From a virus (Duplodnaviria; Heunggongvirae; Uroviricota; Caudoviricetes), in the IMG/VR virus record IMGVR_UViG_3300012942_000032, positions 58,282 to 122,281 of that record: DNA of 64,000 nucleotides; one strand, given 5' to 3'. Below are positions 1,785-59,660 of the stretch, in pieces. A program made the position numbers and the translations under genes. The notes below the pieces were generated by a model. The model saw nothing but the letters and a program-made list of their open reading frames with translations, was not told the DNA's origin and did not search any database. Position 1 is the stretch's first letter. Each line of letters begins with the position of its first letter.

Positions 1785-1818
1785 ATAGGTGCTCGAAGCT
1801 AATTCCGAGCAGCTTGAA

Positions 1819-41195: not shown

Positions 41196-42998
41196 ATGAA
41201 GAATCTTCCAGTACAAACATTAAACTTCCTTGACATCAAGACAAACTTTACAAGTTTCTTGAAAGGAGATCCTTTCTATAAGGATTTCAATTTTGATGCT
41301 TCTGGCATTTCATCTCTACTTAATATCTTAGCATACAATTCGCATTATATTGGGTTCTATACCAAGATGATGTTAGATGAAAGCTTTGTTGATTCTGCTC
41401 ATACCAGAATTGCAATGCTTTCTCATGCTAAAAGAACTGGATATGTTGTCAAAGGAAATAGAAGTGCTAGAGCTGATATTCAATTAGCTATCTCTATGGA
41501 TCCAGCAGATGAACCCATCAGCGGTATCATTGTAATTCCTAAGGGCTCGTCATTTAAGGCTACAAATTCTACCCAAGATACCAGAGTCTTTCAGGTAATT
41601 GATGATGTGACGGTGTATGATAGATCTGTAGTAGATGGAAAAGTGATCTATACTTCTCCAGTATTCACAATCTACGAAGGATCTGCTGAAACTTGGACAT
41701 TCACTGTAGATAACACCGATACAAATCAGCGATTTGTAATCAAGGATTTTGATATTGATGTTGATACGATCAGAGTCAATGTAAGAGATCATGCAGGAAG
41801 CGATAATCTAACAGAATTCCAGTTAGCTGATGATATTTTTGAGATTGATGGCACCAGCAATGTATTCTTTTTTACTACAAATGAGGATGGTTATTACCAA
41901 ATCTTCTTTGGTAATGGAGTATTTGGTGTAAAACCTGATAACAATAATGTAGTCGAAGCAACCTATGTTTCTACATCAGGCGAAGATGGAAACGGAGCTA
42001 AGGCATTCAGTTATACTCCGCCTGCTGCTGATCCTACAGATGATTACAATATTGGTAACTATTCTGATTTTACCGTAACCACAATTTCAGCATCTTCAGG
42101 TGGAATGGAACCAGAAACTGTAGATTCTTTACGTTTCACAATTCCATATCATACCAGACGTCAGAATAGAATTGTTACAGAAAGCGATTATCAATCTGTG
42201 CTCCTGAGTGAGTTTAGAAATATTGATAGCATTAACGTTTGGGGCGGCGAAAAGAATACTCAGAGACAATATGGTAAGATCTTCATTTCAATCAAACCAA
42301 AATATTCAGATGCTCTAACATCAAGCGCCAGAAATGAAATTGCAACATCAATCATTTCTAAGTATGGTGTTGTAGGAGTAGACCCAATCTTTGTTGATCC
42401 GGAATTCATCAATGTAGATCTTACTGTAAAGGCAAAGATTGATACCAGAAAGACTAATAAATCTCTTGGTGAGATTGAAAAACTGATTTTAGATAGAGTT
42501 TCTGAATTTAATTCTGATAATTTGAATAGATTCAATGAAACTCTATCAGATGTCAATATGCTTGATTATTTGAAAGATGGGGAAGATGAAATTGTTTCCA
42601 TCTATGATACCAAAGTTCTAAGAAAGAGTATGAATATCATTCCAAAATCAACTGCTGCAAATGATTTGATCTTTGGTAACGGAATTAACTTAGGTGTTTC
42701 GTCAAGTACCTTTACATATTCAGGTAATATATGTCAGTTTAAAGATGATCCTTCATTAGCAGATGATCATCTTTATATCTACACGAATAGCTCTAAGCTT
42801 CTAACAAAGGCGTTTGGAACTGTTGATTATGATACTGGAGAAATCACATTCTCACTTCCTGCGGCTGCGGTAATGGTAGGATATGAAAATCAGACATCTG
42901 CGGTAATTGAGTTTACTGTCACACCTCAAACACCTGACATTGATACCTATCTAAATAACATCACACGCATTGCGACAACAAGAGTTATCCTATCGTGA
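41196..42998 (+). CDS. 6: baseplate wedge protein gp6-like
   Basis: The N-terminal LNILAYNSHYIGFY region resembles the T4 gp6 LCDLLAYNTLYIQQF region. It follows gp25 as in cyanomyovirus-type gene order. Confidence 0.65.
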   Translation: MKNLPVQTLNFLDIKTNFTSFLKGDPFYKDFNFDASGISSLLNILAYNSHYIGFYTKMMLDESFVDSAHTRIAMLSHAKRTGYVVKGNRSARADIQLAISMDPADEPISGIIVIPKGSSFKATNSTQDTRVFQVIDDVTVYDRSVVDGKVIYTSPVFTIYEGSAETWTFTVDNTDTNQRFVIKDFDIDVDTIRVNVRDHAGSDNLTEFQLADDIFEIDGTSNVFFFTTNEDGYYQIFFGNGVFGVKPDNNNVVEATYVSTSGEDGNGAKAFSYTPPAADPTDDYNIGNYSDFTVTTISASSGGMEPETVDSLRFTIPYHTRRQNRIVTESDYQSVLLSEFRNIDSINVWGGEKNTQRQYGKIFISIKPKYSDALTSSARNEIATSIISKYGVVGVDPIFVDPEFINVDLTVKAKIDTRKTNKSLGEIEKLILDRVSEFNSDNLNRFNETLSDVNMLDYLKDGEDEIVSIYDTKVLRKSMNIIPKSTAANDLIFGNGINLGVSSSTFTYSGNICQFKDDPSLADDHLYIYTNSSKLLTKAFGTVDYDTGEITFSLPAAAVMVGYENQTSAVIEFTVTPQTPDIDTYLNNITRIATTRVILS

Positions 42999-44548
42999 CA
43001 CAGACAATTCTACCAGTAATCAAAGGTAGATTCCAGAGCTTTGTAAAGGATGATTATCCTAATTTTGCAAAGTTTATGGGGGACTACTTCAAATGGTTGG
43101 AGCAGGATAATAATTTCCTGCAGATTGTCAACGACTGGAGGTCCAATACTGAACCTTCAAACAATGTAGAACCTTATATCACTGCAATTCTAGAAGATGT
43201 AGGTTTTGATATCAACCAAGATATTTCAATTCCTAAATCTACTTTATTGCATTTCATGAAAGATTTCTATCTTGCAAGAGGTAGCACGCAATCATTTGAA
43301 TTCTTATTCAGAGTTCTCTTTGCTGATGATACAATTAAGATCAGATATCCTCGAGAAAATCTTCTTATTCCTTCATATGCAGAATACGGAGAGAAATTCT
43401 ATGTCTATCTGAGTGCGAACAATGTAGGATCTAGAGATTATCTTGCAATTCTTCAAAATCTTACAGAATTATCAGGTACTCTAACAGGTCTTACTTCTAA
43501 GGTTGTTGTATCCGTAGAATCAATCACGCCTATTTTAGGTAACAGCAAGACATATCTAGAAATTGAAATTCTGAAATCTATTGGTGATTTTATTGTTGGA
43601 GAGAATGTTTCTCTAACAGTAGGGGACAATCAGATTGTAGAAGTTATTCAGAATGTTTCATCAGTTGATATTCATGCAGGTGGAAGCGGGTATCAACTAA
43701 ATGATCCTGTCATCGTGAGTCATGCTCAGATTACATCTAACGGATATGTCAGTAAAATCAGCTCAGGTGGTATTGATTCTTTAACGATTACATCTGCAGG
43801 AACAGGTTATACAGTTGGTGATTTGATTCTTGCTAGAAATGTAACAAATCAAGATGGTTCAGGATTCAGTGCTCAAGTATCTGCGGTGGGTAATAATGGT
43901 GAGCTTCAATCTTATATCGTTCTGTGCCCAGGATATGGATATACAATTCTTCCTGAGATTACTGTAAAAAGACAAGAAACAGGAACATTTACAGATGCTA
44001 TCATTGAACCGTTAAGTTCTCAGATTGGTAGCATCCAAAATATCACGTTCTTAGGAGCAAATGTAGATTTTGATGAAACTGCAACCGTAGAAGTTTCATC
44101 AATCACAGGAACGGGCGGATCATTAATCTTAAACTCTGTTTCTACTTTTGGAATTAGTGATTGGGACAATGATAGAGGATTCATAGGTGAGAATTCTACC
44201 ATCATTGACAGTGATAAATATCAGCAATATTCATATGAGATCATTTCATCGATCAGCCCCTCTAGATATTTGACAATTGTAGATGATTTGCTTCATCCAG
44301 TCGGATATGTTAGATCGGCAGTTATTGAAATTGAATCAAGTGTTGTTCTAAATACACCAAAATCAACAAGTTCTGGTTCTATTATCACAGATATTACCTT
44401 CTTGTCTGATTCCCCTGATGATGATTTCATAACTTCAGAAGATGGAATATTGATTATCATCTCTGAGCCAGATTCCGACACTCTGGTAACAGATATCGGC
44501 GACACAATTGTTACAGATCAAGGCGAGGTGATTGAGCTGAGCCACTGA
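42995..44548 (+). CDS. structural protein with Ig-like GYT repeat (517 aa), GTG start
   Basis: Contains ITSAGTGYTVGDLIL and CPGYGYTILPEITV repeat units. Confidence 0.55.
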   Translation: MTQTILPVIKGRFQSFVKDDYPNFAKFMGDYFKWLEQDNNFLQIVNDWRSNTEPSNNVEPYITAILEDVGFDINQDISIPKSTLLHFMKDFYLARGSTQSFEFLFRVLFADDTIKIRYPRENLLIPSYAEYGEKFYVYLSANNVGSRDYLAILQNLTELSGTLTGLTSKVVVSVESITPILGNSKTYLEIEILKSIGDFIVGENVSLTVGDNQIVEVIQNVSSVDIHAGGSGYQLNDPVIVSHAQITSNGYVSKISSGGIDSLTITSAGTGYTVGDLILARNVTNQDGSGFSAQVSAVGNNGELQSYIVLCPGYGYTILPEITVKRQETGTFTDAIIEPLSSQIGSIQNITFLGANVDFDETATVEVSSITGTGGSLILNSVSTFGISDWDNDRGFIGENSTIIDSDKYQQYSYEIISSISPSRYLTIVDDLLHPVGYVRSAVIEIESSVVLNTPKSTSSGSIITDITFLSDSPDDDFITSEDGILIIISEPDSDTLVTDIGDTIVTDQGEVIELSH

Positions 44549-44565
44549 TACCATAAGGTACTCTA

Positions 44566-46101
44566 ATGTCAGACAAGGTTAGTTCAAATATCAAACCGTA
44601 TCTGGTTTCTAGTCTGATTCAGACTCTTAGAAACAATCCTGCTCCAGGTTGGAAAAAGCTTACCCCTTATACTTTAGGTACGCAAGTATCTAATTCTGGT
44701 AAGGTATATGCAGCTATTCAAAATGGTGTCTCTGGAATTACTCCTCCTTCACAAAATTCTGGATTGTTTCTAGATGGAACAGTCCAATGGATCTATGTAG
44801 GTCAGATCAATAATCAATCAGATATTTCGAGTAATATCTACCTTGGAATTGGTGATATTGAAGAATGGGCGGATCCTAATAATCCAGATACTCCTACAAC
44901 TGGATCAGAGTCAGAATCGTTTGTCCTGAACAATCTAATTACTCTTATTAAAGTAACTCCTACCAATGTTCGTCTGGGTTTAAAAATCAATATCTGGACT
45001 GAAAATACTGTTTATTCTCAGTTTGATAGCTCTAAAGATCCTTCAGAATATGATTCTGCTCATCCTTTGTATGTTGTGATTGGATCAGATGTTTATAAGT
45101 GCATCGACAATGCTGAAGGTGCTCCTTCTACTGTAAAACCAACAGGAACATCACTGAATCTAATTCGTTTAGCAGACAAGTATGTCTGGAAGTATATGGG
45201 TTCAGTCTCTTCTTCAGATTCTGTAACTTTCCAGACTACTCAGTACATTCCGGTGGTCTACAAGACGTCTAATGATGGCTCAACTCAATGGGCTGTTCAG
45301 CAGGCTGCACTTGAAGGCTCATTGTCAACCTTTGGCGAGGTATTCTCAAACAATGAAGCTTTTACAACACCTTCTGTATCTATTCAAGGCTCTGGTAGTG
45401 GGGCTATTGCTGCTTTTGATTTGTCACCTTCTGGACTAATCCAGCATCTCTATATTACAAATCCTGGAACAGGTTATGATCAGAACACTTTTGCTATTGT
45501 AAAAGAAACTTCTGCTGCTGGTTCGGGTGCATCTGTAGATGTTCAAATTGCAGATGGTGTTGTTTCTATCAATGGCTCCGTAACTCCAGGCACGAATTAT
45601 GAAGAAGCTTGTCTAGTAATCATTGGTGATGGTTCTGGGGCAGTTGGTCAAGTTACTGTTGCAGGTGGACAGGTGACTAATGTAACGATTACGGATGGTG
45701 GTTCTGGATATACATGGGCAGAAGCATTTATTATTCCAGGTTCCGCCGGTGCAGTATCCCAGGCGATTTTAGCACCTCTGCAGGGACACGGAAGCAATAT
45801 CATCACAGAATTGTGTGCAAATACTCTTCTGATGTCATTTAAGATTACAAATAGTGATACAGATTATATTACTGATGTAGATTACAGACAAATTTCTCTT
45901 CTGAGTTCAATCCAACCTGATCAGAATTCTGTATCAAATGCTAATATGTTCATTGGACCATCACATCCAGAATATAATTCGTCAACCTCACTCAATAAGT
46001 ATAGTATCGGAAGTGGTTATATGCTCTATTTGAACAATGTTCCAGTGATTGAGCATACATACTCACAAGAAGAAACTCTAAAAATTGCGATTGAATTTTA
46101 A
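44566..46101 (+). CDS. structural protein with Ig-like GYT repeats (511 aa)
   Basis: Contains ITNPGTGYDQNTFAIV and VTITDGGSGYTWAEAFII. Confidence 0.55.
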   Translation: MSDKVSSNIKPYLVSSLIQTLRNNPAPGWKKLTPYTLGTQVSNSGKVYAAIQNGVSGITPPSQNSGLFLDGTVQWIYVGQINNQSDISSNIYLGIGDIEEWADPNNPDTPTTGSESESFVLNNLITLIKVTPTNVRLGLKINIWTENTVYSQFDSSKDPSEYDSAHPLYVVIGSDVYKCIDNAEGAPSTVKPTGTSLNLIRLADKYVWKYMGSVSSSDSVTFQTTQYIPVVYKTSNDGSTQWAVQQAALEGSLSTFGEVFSNNEAFTTPSVSIQGSGSGAIAAFDLSPSGLIQHLYITNPGTGYDQNTFAIVKETSAAGSGASVDVQIADGVVSINGSVTPGTNYEEACLVIIGDGSGAVGQVTVAGGQVTNVTITDGGSGYTWAEAFIIPGSAGAVSQAILAPLQGHGSNIITELCANTLLMSFKITNSDTDYITDVDYRQISLLSSIQPDQNSVSNANMFIGPSHPEYNSSTSLNKYSIGSGYMLYLNNVPVIEHTYSQEETLKIAIEF

Positions 46102-46110
46102 GGTGAAATA

Positions 46111-49100
46111 ATGTCCAGATTAGATCTAAATAGATCTCCTTATTTTGATGACTTCGATCCGTCGAAGAATTACATGCGTATCTTGTTTCGCCCTGGACGT
46201 CCAGTTCAAGGACGTGAACTGAACCAGATTCAAAGCACGCTTCAAAATCAAATTGAGCAGTTCGCAAACAACATCTTTAAGAATGGCTCTATCGTAAGTA
46301 ATGCTCGCAGTTCGCTGGTAGCTAAAGCTTACGCTCGTCTGATGGAAAATACCGCAGACACAAATGTCGTGGTTGATATTGAACAATTTGCAGAAGGTAC
46401 TCAACTTAAGGGCGATGTTTCTGGTATTACTGCTACCCTAGTAAAATCTGTGAATGCAGATTCTGTAGCTGGTGATCCTCCGACAATCTACATCGTTTAT
46501 ACTGGGACTGCTATTGATGGAAAAACATCTAGCTTTATTCCAGGTGAAACTGTCAGTGTTTATGATGAAAATAATCTACCAGTTTATAAGGTAACTGTTC
46601 GTTGTCCAAGCTGTCCTGGCTCATCTCTATCAGATACAATTCCACCTACCGGTTCAGGGCAAATCTTCACTGTAGATGAAGGTGTGTTCTATTACGAAGG
46701 AATGTTTGTTCAGTGTGCTCGTCAGGATATCATTGTTCTGAAGTACATGCTGAAGGATTCTGATGGAAACGTAACGAATAGCGTTCCGTGCAAACTAGGT
46801 CTAGATTTTGTTCAAAGCATTGTGACCTATGAAGATGATCCATCTCTTTTAGATCCTGCTCTTGGATATCCAAATAGTACAGCGCCAGGTGCTGATCGCT
46901 ATAAAGCAGACCTAGTACTGACAAAGAGATCATACGATGCCGAGGATGGTGATAATTTCATCCTGCTATGTCGTGTTGGCGATGGAATGACAATTGAGTA
47001 CATGAAGTCGGGCAGTGAATACTCGGCAATCATGGATGAAATTGCAAAGAGAACTTATGAAACTTCTGGTGATTACACTATTACTCCTTTCAAAGTTTCT
47101 TTCTATAATTCACTGAAGTCATCAGACACTGATACACTAGGTTGGTCAACAACTGGTGATGCTGATTCTTTGATTGCTCTTGTTACTCCTGCCACTGCTT
47201 ATGTGAAGGGTTATAGAGTACAAACGATTTCTAACACTCCTGTTCAGTTTAGAAAAGCGAGAGATACAAAGAAGATTGGATCTTTCATTAAGCGTTTCGA
47301 TGAAAGAACTTATGTGATGATGCAACCTAAGGGTTCCGCTGGAATCTGGCCTAATGCTGCGACAGATGTATCTTTGATTGGTTCTAATACTGTTACCATG
47401 TTTGATGGTCCAGTGGTAAGCAACTCTACAAGTGGCAATGCAATTGGTACATTCCAGGTTTCGGACATGGTTCTGGTTTCTGGAGATCCTACTCTTGGAA
47501 CTGCTACCTACAAATATTACATCTACAATCTGAATATCACTGTTGCAGGTAAGAAACTTTCAGATGCACAGAGCTTCGGAAACGCTGGATCTCAATTCGT
47601 TGCTGCCGCAGTAACGGATACTACTTCTGGTCTATTTGAACTTTACAATTCAAATCAAAGTGCTCTGATCTACAAGATTGATCGTGATAATATCAAGACT
47701 CTAAGAGATAACGACAATAATCAGAATGGTTCTATCAGCGTAATTGTTCGTAAGAAACTGACAGGTACTCTGAATAGCACAGGTTCGGTAACCTTTAACT
47801 CTACTACGAATGAATTTTACGAACCATTCGATAATACAATGATCGTCTATACCACGGATGGATCGGGTAATATCCATCCCGTGAACTTGCTTGCGAGCAT
47901 GGTAGATGATGATCCTACTGCTCTAACTCTAAATCTAGGAAGTGCATATCAAGGTCAAAGCGTTACAGTTCTGACAAGCGTCTTAATGACCAATCAGAAA
48001 GAAAAGACAAAGACTCTAACTGCAACTAGCTTCCAAACAAATACTGCTCCTAGCTTCAGTGTAGGCGATATCATTCCTCTAGGGAAGGGAGATGCTTGGG
48101 CTCTAACAAGTGTTCAAGTCATTAACCCTGCAGATGCGAATTTCACTCCTGTAGATGTCACTTCAGAATATTCGTTGAATACTAACATCAATGATTATGG
48201 TTATTTTGAGTCGACAATCACCAGAGTAAAAGCAGGTTCCTTGAGCCCTAACAGTAACTTCAGATTGCTGATTAGCTTTACCTATTTTGATCATTCTGGA
48301 ACTGCTGGTTACTTTACGATCGATTCTTATGCTTCAGCATTAAACGATCCTACAAGTGGTGTAACATACGAAAATCTACCTACCTATGTATCGAGTAATC
48401 AGACTTCATACCCAATTGCGTCTAGTTTTGATTTCCGTCCTTTAATTGTAGGAACCGACGCAATTAGTGCTCTGCCGCCTGCTAATGCAACGACAGCAAT
48501 TTTTGATATTGAATATTATCTGCCACGTACAGATCTTCTTCAGATTAACAAAGATGGTGTCTTGTATGTTAAGGAAGGTATCTCAAGCGAGAGCCCAGTA
48601 CCTCCTACAACTGATAATAATGCGATGGCTCTGTACCAAATTTGGCAGAAGCCTTATGTGTATTCATTGAATGATGTAAGCACCAAGTACATCGAGAACA
48701 AGCGTTACACCATGAGAGATATTGGTGGTCTAGAAAGCAGAATTGCAAATCTAGAATACTACACCTCTCTGACTCTACTTGAGCAGAGTGCAGCAAATAT
48801 GAGTATCAAGGATAGTAGTGGCCTTGATCGATTTAAGAATGGTTTCATTGCTGATAACTTCAGCGATTTCCAAGCTGCTGATCTAACAAACGTAGAATTC
48901 CGCGCCGCCGCCGATAGAACACAACAAGAACTTCGTGCTCAATTCAAGACACGTAACAAGAAGCTTGCTCTGAACATTCAGAAATCATTGAATGTAAAGA
49001 TGATGGGTAATGTTGCGATGCTTCCATTCACCGAAGTAGTGATTGATCAGAATCCTTATGCGACAACGCATCTGAGTATCAATCCATATTTCCAGTATTG

Positions 49101-51906
49101 TCAGCGAGGAACACTTGTTCTGTCACCTAACACTGATACTTGGACTAACGATACTGCTCTACCTAAGGTAACTGTGGATGTCGATACTGGTGTTCAAGCC
49201 TTCCAACAACTTGCGAATGCAACTGGTGTGTTAGGGACTGATTGGGGTTCATGGGTAGATCAGAACAGAACTATTCTGCAATCTTCATCTCAGAGCACTT
49301 CTACGGCAAATAATAATGGCGTAAAAACCACAACTGCTACAACAACCACGACAACTAATCTGGTTGCTACTACTTCGACAAGAACTGGTACTGCGACAAC
49401 CGTTGGTTCAAGAACTGATACCTACGATATCGGTGACGTTGTTAAGGATGTACAGATCATTCCTTACATGAGATCTGTTGTGGTAGAATTCTATGCTACA
49501 AAGATGAAGCCTAATACCATTGTGTATCCATTCTTTGATGGAACCGATGTATCTGCTAATTGCCGTAACACTGGATTCCAACTAACGTCTGCTAATGCTT
49601 CAACAAATGCTCAACTTGTCGCATATGGAAGTCCGTTAATCACTGATGGAAATGGCGAACTTCGTGGTGAATTTAAGATTCCTGATAACACATTCTTCAC
49701 TGGTGAAAAGACCTTTAAGCTGACTGATGATGAAACTAACTCAGGAAATCCTGATTTAGAATCAACTTCTGCAGATACTACATTCTTCTCAGGTGGTCTT
49801 GATGTTACAACTCAAGACACTACCTTGAATGTGATCAGCCCAACGTTCAACAAATCACAAGTTTCTCAAAGCAATACAACGACAACGACAGAAACAAGTC
49901 GTCAAACATCTGTTGTGACTACATTGAACCCTGATCCGATCTCACAGAAGTGTGGAAATATTCCAGAACATACTTCTTCTTTCAGAAAATGTTCGTGTGC
50001 TATTAGCCCATCTTCATGGCAATGTCATGATCCTGTAGCCCAAGGTCTGCAAACGACTTCTGAAATGGTTGTGACCGCAGTAGGTGTATTCTTTAAAGCT
50101 GCCGATCCTATCGGTGATAGCTTGTTCTTACAGATTCGTGATATGGTAAATGGTTATCCTGGTCAGAATATCCTAGCCCAGAAGAACTTTACTTCAAGCG
50201 ATCTTCAGTTATACATTTCTGATGATTCTGCAAAGGAATTTAAGGTAACATTTGATACACCTGTGTACCTAGAAGGAAATAGTCAGTATTGTTTTGTGGT
50301 AGGTGGTTACTCACCTAATACTAGAATTTGGATCTCTACTCTTGGTCAAGAAGTAGTGAACATGCCTGGTACAATTGTTCAAGAATCTCCAACTGGTCAA
50401 TCAAGTTTCCGTTCTTTAAATGGTGATACCTGGAATGCTGAACAGACTCAAGAGATCAAGTACAATCTATATGCGGCTAATTTCACAGAAAACACAATGA
50501 CACTTGTGTTTGAGAATAGCCAAGATATGAACACCTGGCCTCTAGATGATAATCCGTTTGAATTTGAATCTGGAAGCAATCAGATGCGTGTGTATGCACG
50601 TGATCATGGATTTACTGAAAATGATCGTATTAGTATTTCTCTATTTGATGATCAAACGATCTCAATCCAAGCGACGGATTTCCCACCTCAAGTAGGTCAA
50701 ACAATCCATACGATTACAGGTCACGCAATAATCGCGAGTGTAACACCTGATCCTTCATCTGGAGCAAATTACTACAAGATCACTGTCAATCAGTCTTATG
50801 GTTTATTCCTAAATGGTCAACAATACACCGCAGATCCTATGAACAAGACAGTAAGAGACAATTATCTTGTTACTGCAATTGGTTCTGTGAAACCAGCAAG
50901 TTACCAATTGAATGAATGCTTCGGTTACTTCCGTCAAGATGCCTATACGAACAAGTATCCGGGTGGAAGCCTTGCAGGTATTCCTCTAGATCAGATCAAT
51001 ACTCAATTGATTGTAACTGCGGTTGATAGCCAAGACACATTCATCGTTCAACTTTCAAGTGTTGCAAATGTTTCTGGCCGTTACGGTGGAACTGGTGTTG
51101 TTTCATACGATTTCAACGAAAAATATGATGTGTTCAACATTTCAGGTGCCCGTACTGCTTACAGAGCAACAGAAAACTGGACAATGACAGGTATTGGACA
51201 CGGAAAGACTTCTAGCCCATTTGCAAGTTCTAATTATGCTCAGCAACCTGCAATCAGTTTCACAATTGGTGAAGACCGTTACATGGACCAGCCGTTCAAG
51301 ATTGCTTCTGCAAATAACGAGCAAAGAGTTCTTGGTTCTGATGGTAAATCTGTAGCGGTTCAATGCGTATTCAGTTCTGCTGGTAATGCAGTATCGCCTA
51401 TGGTAAACTGCGACACATTTAGCATCACAACAATCAGTAACAGAACAGAATGGATTGATGCAGCATCATACAATGTGGCACCTAATGCTACAGGTAGATT
51501 GATTGCTGAAACTGATGGTTATAGAGGTGTTGAATCATATAAGTACGTTACACGAAACATTTTGCTTCAAAACCCAGCAAATGATTTGTATATCTATTTT
51601 GACGTTTATAAGGATCTAAACGCTGATTTTGATGTATACGTTAAGCGCACTTCGGTTTATGATAACAGAAATGTAGATGATATTCCTTGGTTGTTAGTTG
51701 ATCAACTCGATAAATCACATTCATCAGTTGATTTGACAGATAGAGTTGAATATACAGTTCAATGTTCACAAGCAATCTCGGATTGGTTAGATACAAATGG
51801 TGAACCAGAACCTTTCACAGCTTTCAAGATCAAGCTTGTAGGACGTGCAAAGAATTCAGCTCATCCTGTATTGTTTGCAAATCTACGCGGTATTGCGGTA
51901 ACGTAA
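46111..51906 (+). CDS. giant virion structural protein (1931 aa), probably a fibre/baseplate-associated protein
   Basis: I recall the N-terminal YFDDFDPSKNYMRILFRPGRPVQGRELNQIQ motif from giant structural proteins of marine T4-like phages, but cannot confirm it here. Thr-rich linkers (TTATTTTTTN) suggest a multi-domain fibre. Confidence 0.6.
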   Translation: MSRLDLNRSPYFDDFDPSKNYMRILFRPGRPVQGRELNQIQSTLQNQIEQFANNIFKNGSIVSNARSSLVAKAYARLMENTADTNVVVDIEQFAEGTQLKGDVSGITATLVKSVNADSVAGDPPTIYIVYTGTAIDGKTSSFIPGETVSVYDENNLPVYKVTVRCPSCPGSSLSDTIPPTGSGQIFTVDEGVFYYEGMFVQCARQDIIVLKYMLKDSDGNVTNSVPCKLGLDFVQSIVTYEDDPSLLDPALGYPNSTAPGADRYKADLVLTKRSYDAEDGDNFILLCRVGDGMTIEYMKSGSEYSAIMDEIAKRTYETSGDYTITPFKVSFYNSLKSSDTDTLGWSTTGDADSLIALVTPATAYVKGYRVQTISNTPVQFRKARDTKKIGSFIKRFDERTYVMMQPKGSAGIWPNAATDVSLIGSNTVTMFDGPVVSNSTSGNAIGTFQVSDMVLVSGDPTLGTATYKYYIYNLNITVAGKKLSDAQSFGNAGSQFVAAAVTDTTSGLFELYNSNQSALIYKIDRDNIKTLRDNDNNQNGSISVIVRKKLTGTLNSTGSVTFNSTTNEFYEPFDNTMIVYTTDGSGNIHPVNLLASMVDDDPTALTLNLGSAYQGQSVTVLTSVLMTNQKEKTKTLTATSFQTNTAPSFSVGDIIPLGKGDAWALTSVQVINPADANFTPVDVTSEYSLNTNINDYGYFESTITRVKAGSLSPNSNFRLLISFTYFDHSGTAGYFTIDSYASALNDPTSGVTYENLPTYVSSNQTSYPIASSFDFRPLIVGTDAISALPPANATTAIFDIEYYLPRTDLLQINKDGVLYVKEGISSESPVPPTTDNNAMALYQIWQKPYVYSLNDVSTKYIENKRYTMRDIGGLESRIANLEYYTSLTLLEQSAANMSIKDSSGLDRFKNGFIADNFSDFQAADLTNVEFRAAADRTQQELRAQFKTRNKKLALNIQKSLNVKMMGNVAMLPFTEVVIDQNPYATTHLSINPYFQYCQRGTLVLSPNTDTWTNDTALPKVTVDVDTGVQAFQQLANATGVLGTDWGSWVDQNRTILQSSSQSTSTANNNGVKTTTATTTTTTNLVATTSTRTGTATTVGSRTDTYDIGDVVKDVQIIPYMRSVVVEFYATKMKPNTIVYPFFDGTDVSANCRNTGFQLTSANASTNAQLVAYGSPLITDGNGELRGEFKIPDNTFFTGEKTFKLTDDETNSGNPDLESTSADTTFFSGGLDVTTQDTTLNVISPTFNKSQVSQSNTTTTTETSRQTSVVTTLNPDPISQKCGNIPEHTSSFRKCSCAISPSSWQCHDPVAQGLQTTSEMVVTAVGVFFKAADPIGDSLFLQIRDMVNGYPGQNILAQKNFTSSDLQLYISDDSAKEFKVTFDTPVYLEGNSQYCFVVGGYSPNTRIWISTLGQEVVNMPGTIVQESPTGQSSFRSLNGDTWNAEQTQEIKYNLYAANFTENTMTLVFENSQDMNTWPLDDNPFEFESGSNQMRVYARDHGFTENDRISISLFDDQTISIQATDFPPQVGQTIHTITGHAIIASVTPDPSSGANYYKITVNQSYGLFLNGQQYTADPMNKTVRDNYLVTAIGSVKPASYQLNECFGYFRQDAYTNKYPGGSLAGIPLDQINTQLIVTAVDSQDTFIVQLSSVANVSGRYGGTGVVSYDFNEKYDVFNISGARTAYRATENWTMTGIGHGKTSSPFASSNYAQQPAISFTIGEDRYMDQPFKIASANNEQRVLGSDGKSVAVQCVFSSAGNAVSPMVNCDTFSITTISNRTEWIDAASYNVAPNATGRLIAETDGYRGVESYKYVTRNILLQNPANDLYIYFDVYKDLNADFDVYVKRTSVYDNRNVDDIPWLLVDQLDKSHSSVDLTDRVEYTVQCSQAISDWLDTNGEPEPFTAFKIKLVGRAKNSAHPVLFANLRGIAVT

Positions 51907-52103
51907 TGAAAGAAAAAGTTCGAGATTATCCAGGTCTGGTTAAAGTTGATAGAGCCTTTGTAGTCAATACAAACGATACTGAATACAGAAAAGCTCTTGC
52001 AAGGAACAAACAACAAAAGAAGTTAGAGGGCATGGATGCCCGCTTGACTTCCTTAGAAGGAAAATTGGATCAAATCCTATCACTCTTAGGAGCAGGTAAA
52101 TGA
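51906..52103 (+). CDS. hypothetical small protein (65 aa)
   Basis: ORF track; lies between the giant gene and gp13. Confidence 0.45.
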   Translation: MKEKVRDYPGLVKVDRAFVVNTNDTEYRKALARNKQQKKLEGMDARLTSLEGKLDQILSLLGAGK

Positions 52104-52366
52104 CTTCTACAAACCCTAACTGGGCAGAAATGTCCGACGATTTAAAAATCATCGAAATGATGGCGGACGGTTTTGACCACGTGGATACTAAGATTCAAGC
52201 AATTACTCAGGATATCCAAGATATCAGAGAATCGTTATCTAGTCTAGAGACAATGTTAGGTGATCCTTCTAGATTAAATGATAAGAGTATTGTTGACACT
52301 CTAAATACAATTGTAGAAATGCTTGAAACTACTCAAGCGAATGTGTCAGCTTCTCAACAGAAATAA
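52100..52366 (+). CDS. hypothetical small acidic coiled-coil protein (88 aa)
   Basis: ORF track. Confidence 0.45.
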   Translation: MTSTNPNWAEMSDDLKIIEMMADGFDHVDTKIQAITQDIQDIRESLSSLETMLGDPSRLNDKSIVDTLNTIVEMLETTQANVSASQQK

Positions 52367-52374
52367 GGTAGATT

Positions 52375-53121
52375 ATGGCTGTTACCAGAATTACATCTAG
52401 AGATCAGCTAAAGGACTATGCGCTTAGGGCTCTTGGTGCACCTGTTCTTCAGATCAATGTAGATGACAACCAGCTTGAAGATAGAATTGATGATGCACTG
52501 GATATGTTCTGGGAATATCATGCTGATGGTGCTATCCGCACTTTTGTGAAATACGAACTAACCCAAGATGATTTTGATAGAGAATATCTTCAGTTACCTG
52601 ATGGTATTTTATCTGTTATGAGAGTTCTGTCCGTTGATAATCAGAAAGCTTTGATTAATCTGCAATATCAGATGTTCATTACAGATATCATGAATATCAA
52701 ACAGATCACAACTGGCGGTATTAACGGATATGTTCTGACAAATAGCTATCTGAATATGATTAATGATTTCTTTTCTTATGAAAGAGTCGTTAGTTTTAAC
52801 AAGCATCGAGATCAATTAAGAATTGATACTGATTGGTCAACCTATAATGTAGGCGATATTCTTCTTGTTGAGTGTTATATCATTCAAAATCCAGAAGAAT
52901 ATGGTGAGACCTACAACAATTATTGGTTAAAACAGTATGTGATTGCCCTATTCAAGAAGCAATGGGGTCAGAATTTAATGAAATTCTCAGGTGTCAACTT
53001 ACCTGGTAACATTCAGGTAAATGGCAGAGAGATTTACGAAGAAGCTAAAGATGAAGTCAAGGATCTAGAAGATCGTTTGAGAAACGAATTTCAATATCCT
53101 TGCGATTTTTTTATCGGTTGA
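52375..53121 (+). CDS. 13: neck protein gp13-like
   Basis: ALRALGAPVLQINVDDNQLEDRIDDALDMFWEYHADG aligns with the T4 gp13 [37 protein letters not shown]. Confidence 0.75.
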   Translation: MAVTRITSRDQLKDYALRALGAPVLQINVDDNQLEDRIDDALDMFWEYHADGAIRTFVKYELTQDDFDREYLQLPDGILSVMRVLSVDNQKALINLQYQMFITDIMNIKQITTGGINGYVLTNSYLNMINDFFSYERVVSFNKHRDQLRIDTDWSTYNVGDILLVECYIIQNPEEYGETYNNYWLKQYVIALFKKQWGQNLMKFSGVNLPGNIQVNGREIYEEAKDEVKDLEDRLRNEFQYPCDFFIG

Positions 53122-53136
53122 TGCGAGTAATTCTTA

Positions 53137-53769
53137 ATGGCCACGAATAAGTATTTCAACCGATTAAAGCAAACTTCAGAACAAGATCTTTTTGAAGATA
53201 TGGTAATTGAATCCATCCAACAATCTGGTGTGGATGTTTGGTATATCCCAAGAGAAAATCTAGAAGTTGATCCTATTTTAGGTGAACCTACACAATCTAC
53301 TTTCAGAGAAGCTTTCTTGATTGAAGCATATCTTCCTGAAGGTGGACAAATGGATGGTCAACAAAATCTGATGTCTAAGTTTGGTTTTAGAATGAATCAA
53401 ACTATTGATATGATCATTTCTAAGAGACGTTGGGCTGAAATTGGAACTGGATTTCCTCGTCCACGTGAAGGTGATCTAATCTATATTGGGGATTCTCAGA
53501 ATTCATATTCTTCATTCTTGAACACATTCTTTGAGATCAATCAGGTCTGGTACACAAATCCTGACTGGCAATTTGGTCGTCATTTCACATACAAGATGAT
53601 GTGCGAAGTCTTTACCTACTCTTATGAGAAGTTTCAGACTGGTGTTACGACCATTGATGATATGCAGCTTCCAAATATGGACATTGTAGACATGGCGATC
53701 AATGAAGCCTTAGAGCAACAAAAGCCGTCTGTAGTGATTGACAAAAGCAATCCTTTTGGTGATTTCTAA
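53137..53769 (+). CDS. 14: neck protein gp14-like
   Basis: Position between gp13 and gp15; size compatible. Confidence 0.55.
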   Translation: MATNKYFNRLKQTSEQDLFEDMVIESIQQSGVDVWYIPRENLEVDPILGEPTQSTFREAFLIEAYLPEGGQMDGQQNLMSKFGFRMNQTIDMIISKRRWAEIGTGFPRPREGDLIYIGDSQNSYSSFLNTFFEINQVWYTNPDWQFGRHFTYKMMCEVFTYSYEKFQTGVTTIDDMQLPNMDIVDMAINEALEQQKPSVVIDKSNPFGDF

Positions 53770-54512
53770 TGGTAAGAAATATCTTCTATTATGGCACTAC
53801 AAAAAAGATCATCGTCGGATTTGCATCTTGTTTCGATGATATTCGTTATGTAGATGGTCATGGACAAACTATCTTGGTTCCTATCCATTATTCGCCTAAA
53901 GAAAAATTCATTGAATTGATCCAAGCAAATCCTGATTTTGACAATACGAATTTTGATATTACTCTACCTCAGATGGGTTTTGAGATTACAGATATCAAAT
54001 TTGATTCATCACGACATACAAATCCATTGTCAAAAATTGATGATGTAGATTCTACTTCTGGCGAACAATATATGTTCAACAGAGTACCTTACAATTTTGA
54101 AGTTAGCCTTTACATTGCAGCAAGAAGATTTGAAGATTCCTTGAAGATTGTGGAACAAATTATTCCTTTCTTTACGCCCGAATTAACAATTACGATCAAT
54201 GATAAAGAAGATTATAATCTTCAGACGAATGTTCCTATCATTTTAAATGATGCTCAATTCGACATTGATTATGAAGGTTCGTTCAATACCAAGAGAACCA
54301 TTACTTGGACTTTGAATTTTACAGTGAAAGGATTTTATTACTCAAATCCAAGAGATGCAAAGCGTATTAAGCAATCAATTGTTGAATTGCATAACGAAGA
54401 TTTCGATCGTTATTTCACAAAATATACGGCAACTGTAGATCCATTTGAAGCTACTCCATCTGAACCGCATACTATTGTAGAAACTACTGAAACGGTATTA
54501 AATGATGACTGA
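53769..54512 (+). CDS. 15: tail sheath stabilizer/completion protein gp15-like
   Basis: VPIHYSPKEKF and IVEQIIPFFTPE motifs match T4 gp15 (VPITYASKEHF, IVEQILPYFQP). Confidence 0.75.
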   Translation: MVRNIFYYGTTKKIIVGFASCFDDIRYVDGHGQTILVPIHYSPKEKFIELIQANPDFDNTNFDITLPQMGFEITDIKFDSSRHTNPLSKIDDVDSTSGEQYMFNRVPYNFEVSLYIAARRFEDSLKIVEQIIPFFTPELTITINDKEDYNLQTNVPIILNDAQFDIDYEGSFNTKRTITWTLNFTVKGFYYSNPRDAKRIKQSIVELHNEDFDRYFTKYTATVDPFEATPSEPHTIVETTETVLNDD

Positions 54513-54966
54513 TGCAATCTCAAAATCACTAGGTGTTGCTGAACCTAAGCAATTGATGTCTGCAGAAACAGAAGTCGCACGAGTGACCGATGTAACAAGA
54601 ACCCTTGTTGATGCAAAGAAGGAAAATCAAACTTCTGATTATGAAGATGCAAGAACTAATATCAAGTCTATCATTAAAGACTCTATGTCATTAGTTCCTG
54701 ATCTAGTTAATCTGACCAGAGAAGCATATAGTGATAAGATGTATAAAGCTGCTGCTGAATTCCTTGCTACTTTAGCAGATCTAAATGTTTCTCTAGTAGG
54801 TTTATCGGAAACAAAAGAAGTTTCTTCTTCGCAAAAAATTAAACCTGAAGAATCTAAACCTCAAGAAAAACGTGAAGTTAAGGTCTTCATTGGAACTACA
54901 GAAGAGATGCTAGACCGAGTTTCTTCACAAGAGAAGTTGCCTGTCCAAATTCAAGACAATGTTTAA
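54502..54966 (+). CDS. 16: terminase small subunit gp16-like
   Basis: Acidic protein of about 154 aa immediately upstream of the large terminase, as in T4-like order. Confidence 0.5.
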   Translation: MMTDAISKSLGVAEPKQLMSAETEVARVTDVTRTLVDAKKENQTSDYEDARTNIKSIIKDSMSLVPDLVNLTREAYSDKMYKAAAEFLATLADLNVSLVGLSETKEVSSSQKIKPEESKPQEKREVKVFIGTTEEMLDRVSSQEKLPVQIQDNV

Positions 54967-55431
54967 GGGATGGGTTACTCAATCCCATTAGCTCCCTTGT
55001 GACGATACTAGATCGTTCAGTTATTTGCTTTTCTTCCCAGAAAAGCTCACTAGCGACAGGAGCTCATTTTCTCGTCAGAGTTTCATTACTATCCTGTCTG
55101 TCAGTCTCATGCAATCCCAGTTCGGCTGGCACCTGAAAATTGCATTACCTAACACGTTTCAAACGGTTAGTCTGACACCTTTGTCGGAGATATAATCTCC
55201 CTAGCATATAGATGATGACTAGTAACCTGTCTATATACTACCCGTTTCGGTAAAACCCTAATGGTGCAAGCGGGGTTTCATCTGTTGGCTGCGCTACTCC
55301 GGGTCACTCCGTTAACTTTTGGGCTCGGACGAGTGATGAGTTTCTTAAATATTCTAGTCTTTCAGTCTTTAAACAGGAGCAATGCTAACTTCTAATCATG
55401 CGTTTGCATAGTCTGAGTTAGATAATGTATC

Positions 55432-57012
55432 ATGGAATACGATTTCATTAAAGAGAATAGCTATAATGGCAACGGCAAACTTAAAAAAGCCGGTGTCAGA
55501 ATGGAAATCACTGCAGAAGAACAACAAGAGTTCATTAAATGTAGAGATGACTTTTTCTATTTTCTAGAGACATATTGTAAGATCATTTCTCTGGATGAAG
55601 GTCTAGTAAATTTCAAACTTTATCCATATCAAAAGAAAATGATGAAAATGATGGAGGATAATCGTTTCAATATCTTCCTTCTTCCTCGCCAGATGGGTAA
55701 GACAATCACTGTTGCTGCTTACCTTTGTTGGTGTGCAATTTTCAATAGACGTTTCAATATTGCTATTCTTGCTAATAAAGCTGAACAAGCAAGAGAAATT
55801 ATGTCTCGTCTTCAATTGATGTACGAAGAACTTCCTTGGTTTCTTCAACCTGGCGTCAAGACTTGGAATAAAGGTGACATTTGGTTGGGAAACGGCTCAA
55901 AAGTATTTACCGCAGCAACCACTGGTTCATCTGTTCGTGGTAAGTCGCTGAACATTGTTTACCTTGACGAATTTGCATTCGTAGAAAATGATGTTGAGTT
56001 CTATACTTCTACCTACCCTGTTATTACATCAGGTAAGAAGACTAAAGTAATTATTACCTCCACTCCTAATGGAATGAATCTGTTCTATAAGCTTTGGACA
56101 GATGCAATGGAAGGTAGAAGTGCATACAAACATCTTCAAGTACATTGGTCTGAACATCCCAATCGCGATGAATCCTGGAAACAAGATCAGCTTCGCAATA
56201 TGGATGAGAAGCAATTCAATCAGGAATTTGGTTGTCAATTCTTGGGGTCTACAGACACTTTGATTTCAGGTCATAAGCTTCAACAATTAACCTTTGTAGA
56301 AGCAATTGGCGGTGATGAAAAGTTCTTTAAAATCTATTCTCAACCAGAGAAAGATCGATCTTATGTAATCACCACTGACGTATCAGAAGGTATTGCAAAG
56401 GATTATTCTGTCATCAATGTCTTCGATGTAACTGAAGCTCCTTACAAACAGGCAGCAATCTATAGAAGCAACATTGTTCCCCCATTGCTACTTTCAGAAG
56501 CTCTATTCAGAATTGCGAATATGTATAACTCTGGAGTCGTAATTGTAGAAAATAACAATATGGGTTCTGATGTTTGTAATTCACTCTGGAATGACTATGA
56601 GTATGAAAATATGCTCATTACCAGGAACAAGAACAATGAAAGCTTAATCAGAGAAGGTCGTCAATCTAACGTAGGCATTAGGACCACGAATAAAACAAAG
56701 TTGATTGGATGCTCTTCTTTGAAATCACTGATCGAAAGTAATACATTAGTGATCTATGATTTTGAAACCGTCAAAGAATTAACGACGTTTATCAAAAAAG
56801 GTAAATCATACGAAGCTGAAAAAGGTAAGAATGATGACATTGTCATGTCAATGGTCTTATTTGCATGGTTCGTTCATCAACCATACTTTTCAGAAATGGT
56901 AGATCTAAACGTAAAAGCATTAACCAAGGACAATCTGTACGATGAGTATTCCATCTGTTTAGGCTTTTTTGCAGATGGAACGGAAACAGACAATGATTCA
57001 TTCATATGGTAA
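55432..57012 (+). CDS. 17: terminase large subunit gp17
   Basis: KCRDDFFYFLETYCKI, Walker A-like LPRQMGKTIT, IVYLDEFAF, and the ITSTPNGMNLFYKLW RNase-H-fold nuclease segment all align with T4 gp17. Confidence 0.9.
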   Translation: MEYDFIKENSYNGNGKLKKAGVRMEITAEEQQEFIKCRDDFFYFLETYCKIISLDEGLVNFKLYPYQKKMMKMMEDNRFNIFLLPRQMGKTITVAAYLCWCAIFNRRFNIAILANKAEQAREIMSRLQLMYEELPWFLQPGVKTWNKGDIWLGNGSKVFTAATTGSSVRGKSLNIVYLDEFAFVENDVEFYTSTYPVITSGKKTKVIITSTPNGMNLFYKLWTDAMEGRSAYKHLQVHWSEHPNRDESWKQDQLRNMDEKQFNQEFGCQFLGSTDTLISGHKLQQLTFVEAIGGDEKFFKIYSQPEKDRSYVITTDVSEGIAKDYSVINVFDVTEAPYKQAAIYRSNIVPPLLLSEALFRIANMYNSGVVIVENNNMGSDVCNSLWNDYEYENMLITRNKNNESLIREGRQSNVGIRTTNKTKLIGCSSLKSLIESNTLVIYDFETVKELTTFIKKGKSYEAEKGKNDDIVMSMVLFAWFVHQPYFSEMVDLNVKALTKDNLYDEYSICLGFFADGTETDNDSFIW

Positions 57013-57060
57013 ATATGATAGAATAATTTGAAAGTACGTCCTTGAATTAGGAGAAAATAG

Positions 57061-59031
57061 ATGGCTTCATCTCAAACAAGCCCAGGCGTAGTGGTTCAGG
57101 AAACTGATTTAACCAACTTCGTTGCTAGTGTTGGCACCTCGGGCGGTGCATTTGTAGGCGGTTTTGCATGGGGTCCTGTAGAACAGTACACAACTCTAGC
57201 TAGTGCAACCGACCTAGAAGCTCAATTTGGTAAGCCAGATGACACTAATTATGTCGATTGGTTCTCGGCATCAAACTTCCTTAGCTATACTGGTCAGCTA
57301 ATTCTTGTCCGTGTTGTTGATGAGAATGCGCTGAATTCGTCAGATGACGGTGATGGTATTCTGATTAAGAATGATAATGATTTCCAGATTGTTAGCTCAA
57401 CTGGACCAACTGGTGTGCATTTTGCTGGTAAGTTCCCAGGCACTCTTGGTAACTCACTAGGTGTGTATGCTTGTGATGCTACTGGATTTGATACTTGGCA
57501 GTACAAGGGTTCATTTGACTCTGCTCCAGGCACTTCAGAAGCTGCTGCTGCTGTAGGCGCAAGCAATGACGAACTTCATGTCGTTGTGGTAGATCTTCAT
57601 GGTAAGTTCTCAGGAACTCCAGGTAGTGTTCTAGAATCTTTCGCATACCTTTCAAAAGCAAAGGATGCAAAGGATATCAACAATGCTCCTAACTACTATG
57701 TCAACGTTCTGAATAGATCCTCACAATACATTCGTGCTCTTACGGCACTGAATGGTGAAAGCGGTTCAGCTGGTGGTGCTGTTACTTCAGTGACTGTAAC
57801 AGATGCTGGTTCTGGATACACAGATGCTACGGTTGCTTTTAGTGCTCCTCCTGCAGGTGGCGTTCAAGCAACTGGTACGGTTCAACTAGATGCTGGTGCT
57901 ATTACAGGTGTGACGATTACCAATCCTGGTAAGGGTTACACGGCTGCTCCTACAGTGACGATTACTGGTACAGGCGGAACCGGTGCAACTGCGACAGCCG
58001 CAGTGAGTGCAATTGTTACGACTGTTGATTGGGGAACTGCTCTTATTGTTGCTGGTGTGCCTTCTGCTTACTCAAGCCTGGCTGCTCCTGTTTCCATGCC
58101 GCTGACTGGTGGTGTTGATAGCACTTCAATTGGTTCACAAGAGCTGATCACTGGCTACTCAATGTTCGAGAATGCAGAGCAGGTTGATGTAAGCTTGATC
58201 TTTGTGGGTTCAGCAGGCGGCGATGATGAAATGGACACTGTTGTTCAATTTGTGATTGACAATGTTTGCGAATCCAGAAAGGATTGCATGGTATTCTTCT
58301 CACCAAAGCTAACTGACGTGCTGAATGTGACTCAGAGCGCTGCTGCAACCAATGTTGTTGCAACTCGCAATCTGATTGCTCGTTCTAGCTCATATGCAGT
58401 TATGGATAGTGGATGGAAGCTACAGTATGACGTCTATGCTGACAAGTACCGTTGGATTCCTCTGAATGCCGATATTGCTGGTCTTTGCGCTCGCGTAGAT
58501 ACCACAAATGATGCTTGGTGGAGCCCTGCAGGATACAATCGCGGTCAGATCAAGAATGTTGTATCTCTTGCATTCAATCCGAACAAGACCTCACGAGATG
58601 CAATCTATAAGGTTGGAATTAACCCTGTGGTTACTTTCAATACTGATGGAACTATTCTTTATGGAGATAAGACGCTTCTAGGAAAGAATAGTGCATTCAG
58701 CTTCATCGGAACACGTCGTCTGTTCATCTTGCTTGAGAAGACAATTAGCGGTGCTGCAAAGTATTCACTATTTGAATTCAATGATCAGTACACGCAGGCT
58801 GCTTTTGTGAACATGGTTGAGCCTCAGCTTCGTACAGTGAAGGGTCGCCGCGGTATGGAAGACTACCGTATTGTTTGCGATAGCTCAAATAACACTGATG
58901 CAGTGATCCAGGCAGGTCAGTTTGTTGGATCAATTTTCATCAAGCCTCAATATAGCATCCAATGGGTGCAACTGAACTTCGTAGCAGTACGTCGTGAAGT
59001 GAGCTTCGATGAAGTCGTAGGCGTTGTTTAA
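57061..59031 (+). CDS. 18: tail sheath protein gp18
   Basis: The N-terminal SPGVVVQETDLTNFVASVGTSGGAFVGGFAWGP aligns with the T4 gp18 SPGIELKETTVQS...GKFQWGP. The protein is about 656 aa. It carries an inserted GYT-repeat segment. Confidence 0.9.
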   Translation: MASSQTSPGVVVQETDLTNFVASVGTSGGAFVGGFAWGPVEQYTTLASATDLEAQFGKPDDTNYVDWFSASNFLSYTGQLILVRVVDENALNSSDDGDGILIKNDNDFQIVSSTGPTGVHFAGKFPGTLGNSLGVYACDATGFDTWQYKGSFDSAPGTSEAAAAVGASNDELHVVVVDLHGKFSGTPGSVLESFAYLSKAKDAKDINNAPNYYVNVLNRSSQYIRALTALNGESGSAGGAVTSVTVTDAGSGYTDATVAFSAPPAGGVQATGTVQLDAGAITGVTITNPGKGYTAAPTVTITGTGGTGATATAAVSAIVTTVDWGTALIVAGVPSAYSSLAAPVSMPLTGGVDSTSIGSQELITGYSMFENAEQVDVSLIFVGSAGGDDEMDTVVQFVIDNVCESRKDCMVFFSPKLTDVLNVTQSAAATNVVATRNLIARSSSYAVMDSGWKLQYDVYADKYRWIPLNADIAGLCARVDTTNDAWWSPAGYNRGQIKNVVSLAFNPNKTSRDAIYKVGINPVVTFNTDGTILYGDKTLLGKNSAFSFIGTRRLFILLEKTISGAAKYSLFEFNDQYTQAAFVNMVEPQLRTVKGRRGMEDYRIVCDSSNNTDAVIQAGQFVGSIFIKPQYSIQWVQLNFVAVRREVSFDEVVGVV

Positions 59032-59079: not shown

Positions 59080-59117
59080 ACTAAATAAAAAGAAATTCAA
59101 AGTTGGAGATATCTCAG

Positions 59118-59660
59118 ATGAGTGCTGACATTCATTCGTTTCTTGCAAATTTTCAAGGCGGCGGCGCTCGTCCTAACCGCTACGAAGTAGTTCTTACTTT
59201 CCCTGCTGGTGTTCCTGGTGGTATTTCGGCTTCTATTAAGGCTGGTTTTACTTGTAGAGCTGCATCTATCCCTGCATCAAATATGGGCGTTGTAGATGTT
59301 CCGTATAAGGGACGTCAAGTTAAAGTTCCTGGCGATAAGGTATGGGATGATTGGACTGTCCAAATTCTTATTGATAATGATTTTGCGACTCGCTCAGTAT
59401 TTGAGAAGTGGCATGATCTTATTTTAGGATTTGATAGCAACGTCGCATCCGCTGGTTTCGTTAACCCTGCTAATGCTTATGCTAGAGCTCAGGTTAATGC
59501 ACTTGATCGTTATGATCAGATTATTCAGACTTATGTTGTAGATGGTATGTTCCCGACTCAAGTTGGTGAAATTACTCTAGCATATGATGCTAACGATCAG
59601 ATCATGGAACAACAGGTTACATTTGCAATCAATGGTTGGTCATCAGACGTTACAACCTAA
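59118..59660 (+). CDS. 19: tail tube protein gp19
   Basis: ARPNRYEVVLTF and DDWTVQIL match T4 gp19 ARPNLFQVEISY and DDWTVTVM. ATG at 59118 preferred over the TTG at 59103 used by the track. Confidence 0.85.
   Translation: MSADIHSFLANFQGGGARPNRYEVVLTFPAGVPGGISASIKAGFTCRAASIPASNMGVVDVPYKGRQVKVPGDKVWDDWTVQILIDNDFATRSVFEKWHDLILGFDSNVASAGFVNPANAYARAQVNALDRYDQIIQTYVVDGMFPTQVGEITLAYDANDQIMEQQVTFAINGWSSDVTT

Follow-up and report, generated by a model that had tools for sequence, protein, structure and literature searches.

The window analysed here is a stretch of 64,000 nucleotides (nt), positions 58,282 to 122,281 of the virus record IMGVR_UViG_3300012942_000032 (Caudoviricetes). The structural block of a T4-like myovirus was located on its + strand at 40.7-61.4 kb, and three tail proteins encoded in this block were found to share a repeated GxGY module, namely, the tail sheath, which is a gp18 homologue, and two baseplate wedge proteins of 517 and 511 amino acids (aa), which are gp7-like and gp8-like, respectively. 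The genes of the block follow the order gp25-like, gp6-like, 517-aa, 511-aa, 1931-aa DUF4815 protein, neck genes, terminase, sheath, tube and portal (Table 1).

The identity of the sheath was established by hhalign against T4 gp18 (expectation value, E, 3.6e-82) and by phmmer against solved T4-type sheaths, among which the sheath of Klebsiella phage KP1 (9ev2) was the best match with E 3.6e-84 and T4 gp18 (9mkb) was found with 1.2e-81. The T4-type sheath core, that is, domains III and IV (Phage_sheath_1 and Phage_sheath_1C), was present. The 517-aa protein matched phrog_26741 (6.5e-133) and baseplate wedge PHROG families, and a match to Pfam Baseplate_wedge was found at its N-terminus. In BLASTP, its residues 23-112 aligned with residues 663-755 of T4 gp7, and its residues 412-438 aligned with residues 862-888. 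Residues 194-261 and 346-511 of the 511-aa protein aligned with T4 gp8, and the portion from residue ~403 onwards was C-terminal to the module.

The GxGY repeat in three tail proteins

According to the original prediction, one repeat motif recurs in the sheath and in the 517-aa and 511-aa proteins, and all of the strings quoted for it were indeed found on the + strand. In total, eight half-repeats with the core G-x-G/N-Y were present at a spacing of 37-44 residues, two in the sheath and three in each of the other two proteins. The motifs of the sheath were VTVTDAGSGYT (GSGY at residue 250) and TITNPGKGYT (GKGY at residue 290). The 511-aa protein carried ITNPGTGYD (GTGY at 301), the degenerate VTPGTNYE (GTNY at 342) and VTITDGGSGYT (GSGY at 379), and the 517-aa protein carried HAGGSGYQ (GSGY at 230), ITSAGTGYT (GTGY at 269) and CPGYGYT (GYGY at 313). 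The G and Y of both motifs were the invariant positions in the sheath-module alignment. The two copies expected in the sheath were thus recovered; the boundaries proposed for them, about residues 235-300, were corrected to about 238-320.

A hidden Markov model (HMM) was built from the module segment of 110 sheath homologues and compared with the 421 six-frame open reading frames (ORFs) of at least 50 aa in the window. This sheath-only HMM matched just three of them, the sheath (1.5e-31), the 511-aa protein (2.9e-17) and the 517-aa protein (1e-11), and the same three window proteins were matched by an independent HMM made from 800 modules of unrelated giant proteins. The module segments of the 511-aa and 517-aa proteins scored 62 and 47 bits, whereas the maxima reached by 1000 composition-preserving shuffles of each segment were 9.6 and 12.9 bits. 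Because the matches were confined to three proteins and the shuffled segments scored far lower, it may be concluded that the similarity outlives profile comparison and that it is no effect of composition. One discrete module is therefore common to the three virion proteins, as had been claimed.

G, T, A and V are abundant in the segments, and the BLAST low-complexity filter strips most of their matches, so the resemblance might be merely a chance or compositional one between Gly/Thr/Ala-rich linkers that form no domain. Such an explanation is extremely improbable in view of scores of 47-62 bits for the real segments and at most 13 for the shuffled ones, the conserved spacing of the motifs, a confident fold prediction and sharp indel boundaries. 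The sheath-module HMM, the fold model of the module alone and the shuffling ruled out a chance or low-complexity linker resemblance.

Table 1. Genes and module regions of the structural block, with positions in the window
Feature	Position	Strand	Remarks
gp6-like gene	41196-42998	+	
gp7-like baseplate wedge gene, 517 aa	42995..44548	+	GTG start overlaps stop of gp6-like gene
517-aa module region, three half-repeats, residues ~220-339	43652..44011	+	sheath-module HMM
gp8-like baseplate wedge gene, 511 aa	44566..46101	+	phrog_438 baseplate wedge subunit 2.8e-61; weak Pfam Phage-Gp8
511-aa module region, three half-repeats, residues ~264-403	45355..45774	+	sheath-module HMM, overlapping stretches
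tail sheath gene, gp18 homologue, 656 aa	57061..59031	+	Pfam Phage_sheath_1 (1.9e-18), Phage_sheath_1C
sheath module, two half-repeats, residues ~238-320	57772..58020	+	HMM envelope 237-318
tube gene	59103-59660	+	
portal gene	59747-61360	+	

Insertion sites, copy number and predicted fold

Sheath homologues of 576-580 aa (P0071, P0085 and P0096), which were 61-65% identical to the window sheath, contained no module and lacked residues ~238-319. In the series drawn from 120 sheath homologues, length tracked the motif count, with no motif at 576-580 aa, two at ~652-674 aa, about four at ~726-749 aa and more at 827-1038 aa. The extra copies in the longer sheaths were located at the same insertion site as in the window sheath. 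With its sharp edges and variable copy number in this boundary comparison with the gp18 of relatives, the module of the sheath is a grafted insertion, as the original prediction had proposed. It proved to be an insert in the two wedge proteins as well: T4 gp8 aligned on either side of the module of the 511-aa protein, and the module of the 517-aa protein fell between the two stretches aligned with T4 gp7. Since close relatives of 576-580 aa manage without the module, it is dispensable for sheath function there, and hence for sheath assembly and contraction.

When the three module-coding segments were compared by blastn, only motif-coding matches of ~24 nt were obtained. A recent intragenomic duplication of the module was ruled out on these grounds, and with such short shared coding stretches the acquisitions must be old. 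The mean pairwise identity of the module was 55%, compared with 54% for the neighbouring exposed region and 65% for the sheath core. To judge from the sequences, the module evolves under ordinary purifying selection and shows no hypervariability.

The fold was predicted with AlphaFold2. For the full sheath, for which a 120-sequence alignment was used, the mean predicted local distance difference test score (pLDDT) was 87 and the predicted template modelling score was 0.80. In the sheath module, strands were placed at residues 241-251, 255-260, 271-277, 280-288, 298-304 and 307-315, with a pLDDT of about 90-95 for these strands and of about 87-95 over the block. The isolated module (45 sequences) was modelled with a pLDDT of 89.9 as six strands and no helix. 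Taking both models together, the six strands had a pLDDT of about 90-98. Each half began with a long strand that led through a tight GxGY loop into a second strand, which a further loop joined to a third. In these models, the module is a unit of ~80 residues, in which two halves of ~40 residues jointly form a six-stranded beta-barrel.

The original prediction had described the repeats as Ig-like and had suggested structural modelling as a check for beta-sandwiches protruding from the sheath. The model obtained consisted of six strands in a 2 x 3 topology, not of a seven- to nine-stranded Greek-key beta-sandwich, and no Ig-family sequence match accompanied it. Neither whole proteins nor multi-copy sheath homologues matched Ig, FN3 or BIg families in sequence, and only one of 45 isolated modules gave a weak Pfam match to Big_9 (E 0.036). 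Nothing in the structural comparison meaningfully linked the module with Ig or FN3 families, no sequence or fold match to a carbohydrate-binding module (CBM) family was found, and phmmer of the module against PDB sequences returned only noise (E>=0.7). The modelling thus showed that the predicted fold is not Ig-like.

A reading of the module as an Ig-like beta-sandwich that decorates the virion and binds carbohydrate, in the manner of the Hoc or BIg domains of other phage proteins, is very unlikely, in spite of several shared traits. Like Ig-like phage domains, the module consists of beta-strands only, is presumably located at the surface, turns up in many different proteins and varies in copy number; moreover, many extra sheath domains were called Ig-like by Evseev et al. 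(2022), who suggested an adhesion role for them (PMC9230969), and the single Big_9 match points the same way. Compared with the Ig-like accessory domains as a whole (Hoc, BIg and FN3-type domains and the extra sheath domains of Evseev et al. 2022), the window module is likewise small, all-beta, presumably exposed, dispensable, horizontally shuffled and present in many virion protein classes, with a presumed accessory adhesion role. It differs from them in its 2 x 3-strand topology and in having no Ig or FN3 match in sequence and no meaningful one in structure.

Probable relation to T4 gp18 domain I and distribution of the module

Domain I of T4 gp18 is inserted into domain II and protrudes from the tail. 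It makes no contacts between subunits and serves as a binding site for the baseplate and for the long tail fibres in their retracted state; the substitutions G106S, S175F and A178V inhibit fibre retraction (PMC3004832). In the numbering of that paper, which does not count the initiator Met, G106 corresponds to the first Gly of the GSNY motif in T4 domain I. The two halves of this domain, TISTPGSNY and INIPTGKNY (IDYTISTPGSNY and KIKKINIPTGKNY), are 41 residues apart, compared with 40 in the window sheath.

The Pfam family PF22639 (Gp18_dom_I) covers T4 residues 96-188 with E 5e-37. The isolated module of the 517-aa protein matched this family with E 4.2e-7 and 30.3 bits (gathering threshold 27), whereas the whole protein reached only 21.8 bits; the module of the 511-aa protein did not match it. 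When whole proteins, multi-copy sheath homologues and 45 isolated modules were searched against Pfam, PF22639 on the 517-aa copy was the only family assigned to the repeats. The domain search that had been suggested for the repeat segments returned PF22639 for the isolated 517-aa copy and named no family for the sheath and 511-aa copies. In NCBIfam, no model matched the repeats.

An HMM built from 11 Straboviridae domain I sequences matched just the 517-aa ORF in the window (E 2.3e-8), in three tandem stretches that were in register with the motifs. When this T4 domain-I HMM was applied to 1087 modules of unrelated giant proteins, the mean score was 4.1 bits, compared with 0.2-0.3 for shuffled and reversed controls, and at least 8 bits were reached by 106 real modules and by 1-3 controls. 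In the reverse comparison, 10 of the 11 T4-type domain I sequences outranked all window decoys with the HMM of unrelated modules, which aligned T4 residues 101-172 over its whole length. In hhalign of the module alignment against T4 gp18 alone, the motif was aligned, with no significance. The sequence evidence is weak, though obtained in both directions, and distant homology of the module and T4 gp18 domain I is regarded as fairly probable.

The two domains occupy different sites. In hhalign, T4 residues 97-190 faced a gap between window sheath residues 97 and 98, and the module at 238-320 belonged to the C-terminal part of the sheath domain II region, ~140 residues later than the T4 domain I site. 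The module had been described as a region absent from T4 gp18. This is correct in that T4 has no insert at the corresponding position; its domain I (98-188), located elsewhere, nevertheless looks like a diverged relative. A T4 sheath that is empty here and carries a related insert elsewhere fits repeated independent grafting of one kind of module. Apart from the site (after residue 97 in T4 and after ~237 in the window sheath), the window module differs from T4 gp18 domain I (PF22639; PDB 3FO8/3FOA, 98-188) in that it is also present in gp7-like and gp8-like proteins and varies in copy number; furthermore, of its copies, those of the sheath and the 511-aa protein fail to match PF22639, and no link between the two domains was made by Foldseek.

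Three sheaths of 1004-1038 aa (P0101, P0117 and P0118) carried an unrelated insert of ~150 residues after window residue 97 (alignment A1, columns 101-250). Since this is exactly the T4 domain I site, that site is a recurrent insertion hotspot as well.

The distribution of the module was studied by a profile search that was exhaustive over 1.84 billion cluster representatives (50% identity clusters). It returned 22,170 proteins at E<=1e-3, 9,007 at E<=1e-10 and 1,353 at E<=1e-30, and the top matches were proteins of 700-7,300 aa with up to 39 matched stretches each. Several PHROG families (virion structural protein, baseplate wedge, tail fibre, head closure Hc2 and hub/lysozyme) matched the repeats only via the module. 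Foldseek against predicted viral structures gave 41 matches at E<=1e-3, mostly with a query-normalised TM-score (template modelling score) of 0.6-0.8, and these included P22 gp10-like proteins, endosialidase, a beta-helix tailspike, cyanophage gp5-like hubs, long and short tail fibres and wedge subunits. The mobility across virion proteins that the original prediction had supposed is thus borne out by PHROG, profile and Foldseek matches in many phage structural classes.

Two of the carriers had unusual surroundings. An 834-aa protein (P0264; L013 1287-3791) combined a PilX_N pilin N-terminus with seven module copies, and its neighbours were genes for N_methyl pilins, T2SSE, T2SSF and PilM/PilN, as in an operon of the type IV pilus or type II secretion system kind. 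Given the location of this protein in a pilus-like operon, the module is used on cellular surface appendages too. The gene for a 1732-aa protein with 15 copies (P0130) adjoined that for a 6277-aa protein (L014 15236-18857) with ddrB-ParB, SNF2 helicase and sigma-70 region 2 matches; the 37-kb contig of P0130, otherwise unannotated, could represent a jumbo phage or some large mobile element.

When the 16-kb block was compared with GenBank phages by megablast, no nucleotide match was obtained. By sheath identity, the closest cultured relatives were Xanthomonas phages BUDD and X1 (64%), Acidovorax phage ACP17 (62%) and Stenotrophomonas Moby-like phages (56%), and the window comes from an uncultured relative. 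Their gp7-like and gp8-like orthologues were 35-43% identical over nearly the full length. In Xanthomonas phage BUDD, the only relative checked in this respect, gene order and module positions were as in the window. The records of these phages call the proteins simply 'tail sheath' or 'baseplate wedge protein' and say nothing of the module. In tblastn with the 95-aa module, 11 phage records were matched, a number limited by the low-complexity filter. A 'hypothetical protein' of BUDD (ON758385.1 135590-135760; X1 152957-153127), encoded far from the tail block, contained a segment that shared 70% identity with the sheath module across 56 residues. A full-text literature search with motif strings, 'gp18 domain I' and PF22639 found no paper that describes the module.

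Proposed role and neighbouring features

We regard it as likely that the GxGY module is an accessory beta-barrel that was independently inserted in three tail proteins, is related to T4 domain I and serves as an exposed docking or adhesion knob. The insertions would have occurred at surface-exposed parts, that is, in the sheath domain II region and in the gp8-like and gp7-like wedge proteins. The module would belong to a large unnamed family found in fibres, tailspikes, hubs, wedges and some pilus-associated proteins, of which T4 domain I is most likely a diverged member. It would project outward from the tail and baseplate and take no part in contraction. Exposure outside the sheath and at the wedge periphery may be assumed because the sheath insertion is in domain II, which is solvent-exposed in T4, because the wedge proteins are peripheral, because the module is dispensable and because its carriers elsewhere are external. 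The knob would be non-catalytic, and the contacts made by its conserved GxGY loops would be weak and reversible. It may bind either host-surface polymers, which are favoured by the breadth of the carriers, or the phage's own fibres, as with T4 domain I, which are favoured by the T4 precedent.

Several observations weigh against this proposal. The 511-aa and 517-aa proteins carry three half-repeats, an odd number for a barrel made of two halves. Foldseek against the PDB gave no match for the module (best E 1.6), and the alpha-helix that trails T4 domain I is missing from the module model. None of 45 sheath modules matched PF22639 even at E<=10, and hhalign of the module alignment against the 11-sequence T4 domain I alignment covered 20 columns with E 0.004 and a probability of 9%. 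The conservation of the module matches that of the rest of the exposed region, with no signature of diversifying selection. Finally, the exposure of the module and the position of its GxGY loops are deduced from the insertion site and from T4.

A narrower function, in which the modules on the sheath, gp7-like and gp8-like proteins hold the phage's own fibres folded until host contact, as T4 domain I does, appears unlikely. It would agree with the location of the three carriers, which line the exterior of the tail and baseplate, and with the binding of retracted long tail fibres and baseplate by T4 domain I, in which G106S, a change of the motif glycine, inhibits retraction (PMC3004832). However, the module is also found in fibres, tailspikes, hubs, giants with 30-40 copies and a protein of a pilus operon, which argues for a generic role; close sheath homologues manage without it, and homology to T4 domain I is itself merely probable.

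Still less likely is a role as structural cement or spacer, in which the modules touch their neighbours and stabilise the extended sheath and the baseplate, or add bulk and reach. The occurrence of zero, one, two or more copies at one site in similar sheaths is contrary to a fixed lattice contact, and T4 domain I makes no contacts between subunits (PMC3004832). These points have to be set against a conservation equal to that of the neighbouring exposed region, with no hypervariability, against the long tandem arrays seen elsewhere, which suggest use as a spacer, and against the stabilisation by extra sheath domains that was discussed by Evseev et al. (PMC9230969).

The docking or adhesion knob may be only one instance of a wider class. 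More tentatively, and with rather less than even confidence, it is proposed that there is an unnamed superfamily of extracellular barrels of 2 x 40 residues (>20,000 clusters), spread over phage fibres, spikes, hubs, wedges and sheaths as well as pilus-associated proteins of bacteria, that T4 domain I is a diverged member and that the GxGY loop, where the G106S mutation of T4 is located, is a general site for docking ligands or fibres. If this were true, T4 would, in retracting its fibres, be using a specialised form of an adhesion mechanism that is widespread.

That phage structural proteins shuffle their domains is nothing new. Extra domains of sheath and baseplate proteins are thought to tune adsorption and virion stability and are mostly filed as 'Ig-like' or left unannotated. 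The existence of extra sheath domains is already well known (PMC9230969). Four points are new here: the module is recognised as a very large family for which neither Pfam nor NCBIfam has a model, it is probably akin to T4 domain I, it occupies a different site in the sheath and is present in gp7-like and gp8-like proteins, and its copy number forms a series. If the module were given a name, segments of tens of thousands of phage structural proteins could be annotated, many giant 'hypothetical' proteins among them. Through the probable kinship, T4 domain I would be the sole experimentally characterised member of the family and would yield a hypothesis on the GxGY loop that can be tested. Sheaths with zero, one, two or more copies occur naturally and form a ready-made experiment on what such decorations do.

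Some other features of the window were recorded. The 1931-aa protein (window 46111-51906) matched DUF4815 (E 1e-57) and, weakly, domain V of gp7; features of T4 gp7 appear to be split between this giant and the 517-aa protein. The N-terminus of the 511-aa protein (residues 29-56, window 44650-44733) gave a weak match to CBM_5_12, a chitin/cellulose-binding family (E 0.063), and matched phrog_19864. This CBM_5_12-like stretch does not belong to the GxGY module; it could represent a further binding element that was grafted on.

Between the tube and portal genes, at 59673-59709 (+), a marginal match to the Rfam abiF RNA motif (RF03085) was found with 39.4 bits against a gathering threshold of 37 (E 0.0012); it may be a mere intergenic hairpin or terminator. 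A permuted (two-piece) transfer-messenger RNA (tmRNA) was detected on the - strand at window 1648-1884 (Rfam RF04321, 63.7 bits, gathering threshold 47), and ARAGORN placed a tmRNA* at 1557-1914 with the tag peptide AKTKNVAANDDVYAVALAA. Carriage of a tmRNA by a phage is uncommon. The tmRNA is adjoined by tRNA-Leu(taa), tRNA-Val(tac) and tRNA-Leu(tag), the tRNAs being located at 401-485, 926-1000 and 1437-1521 (-).

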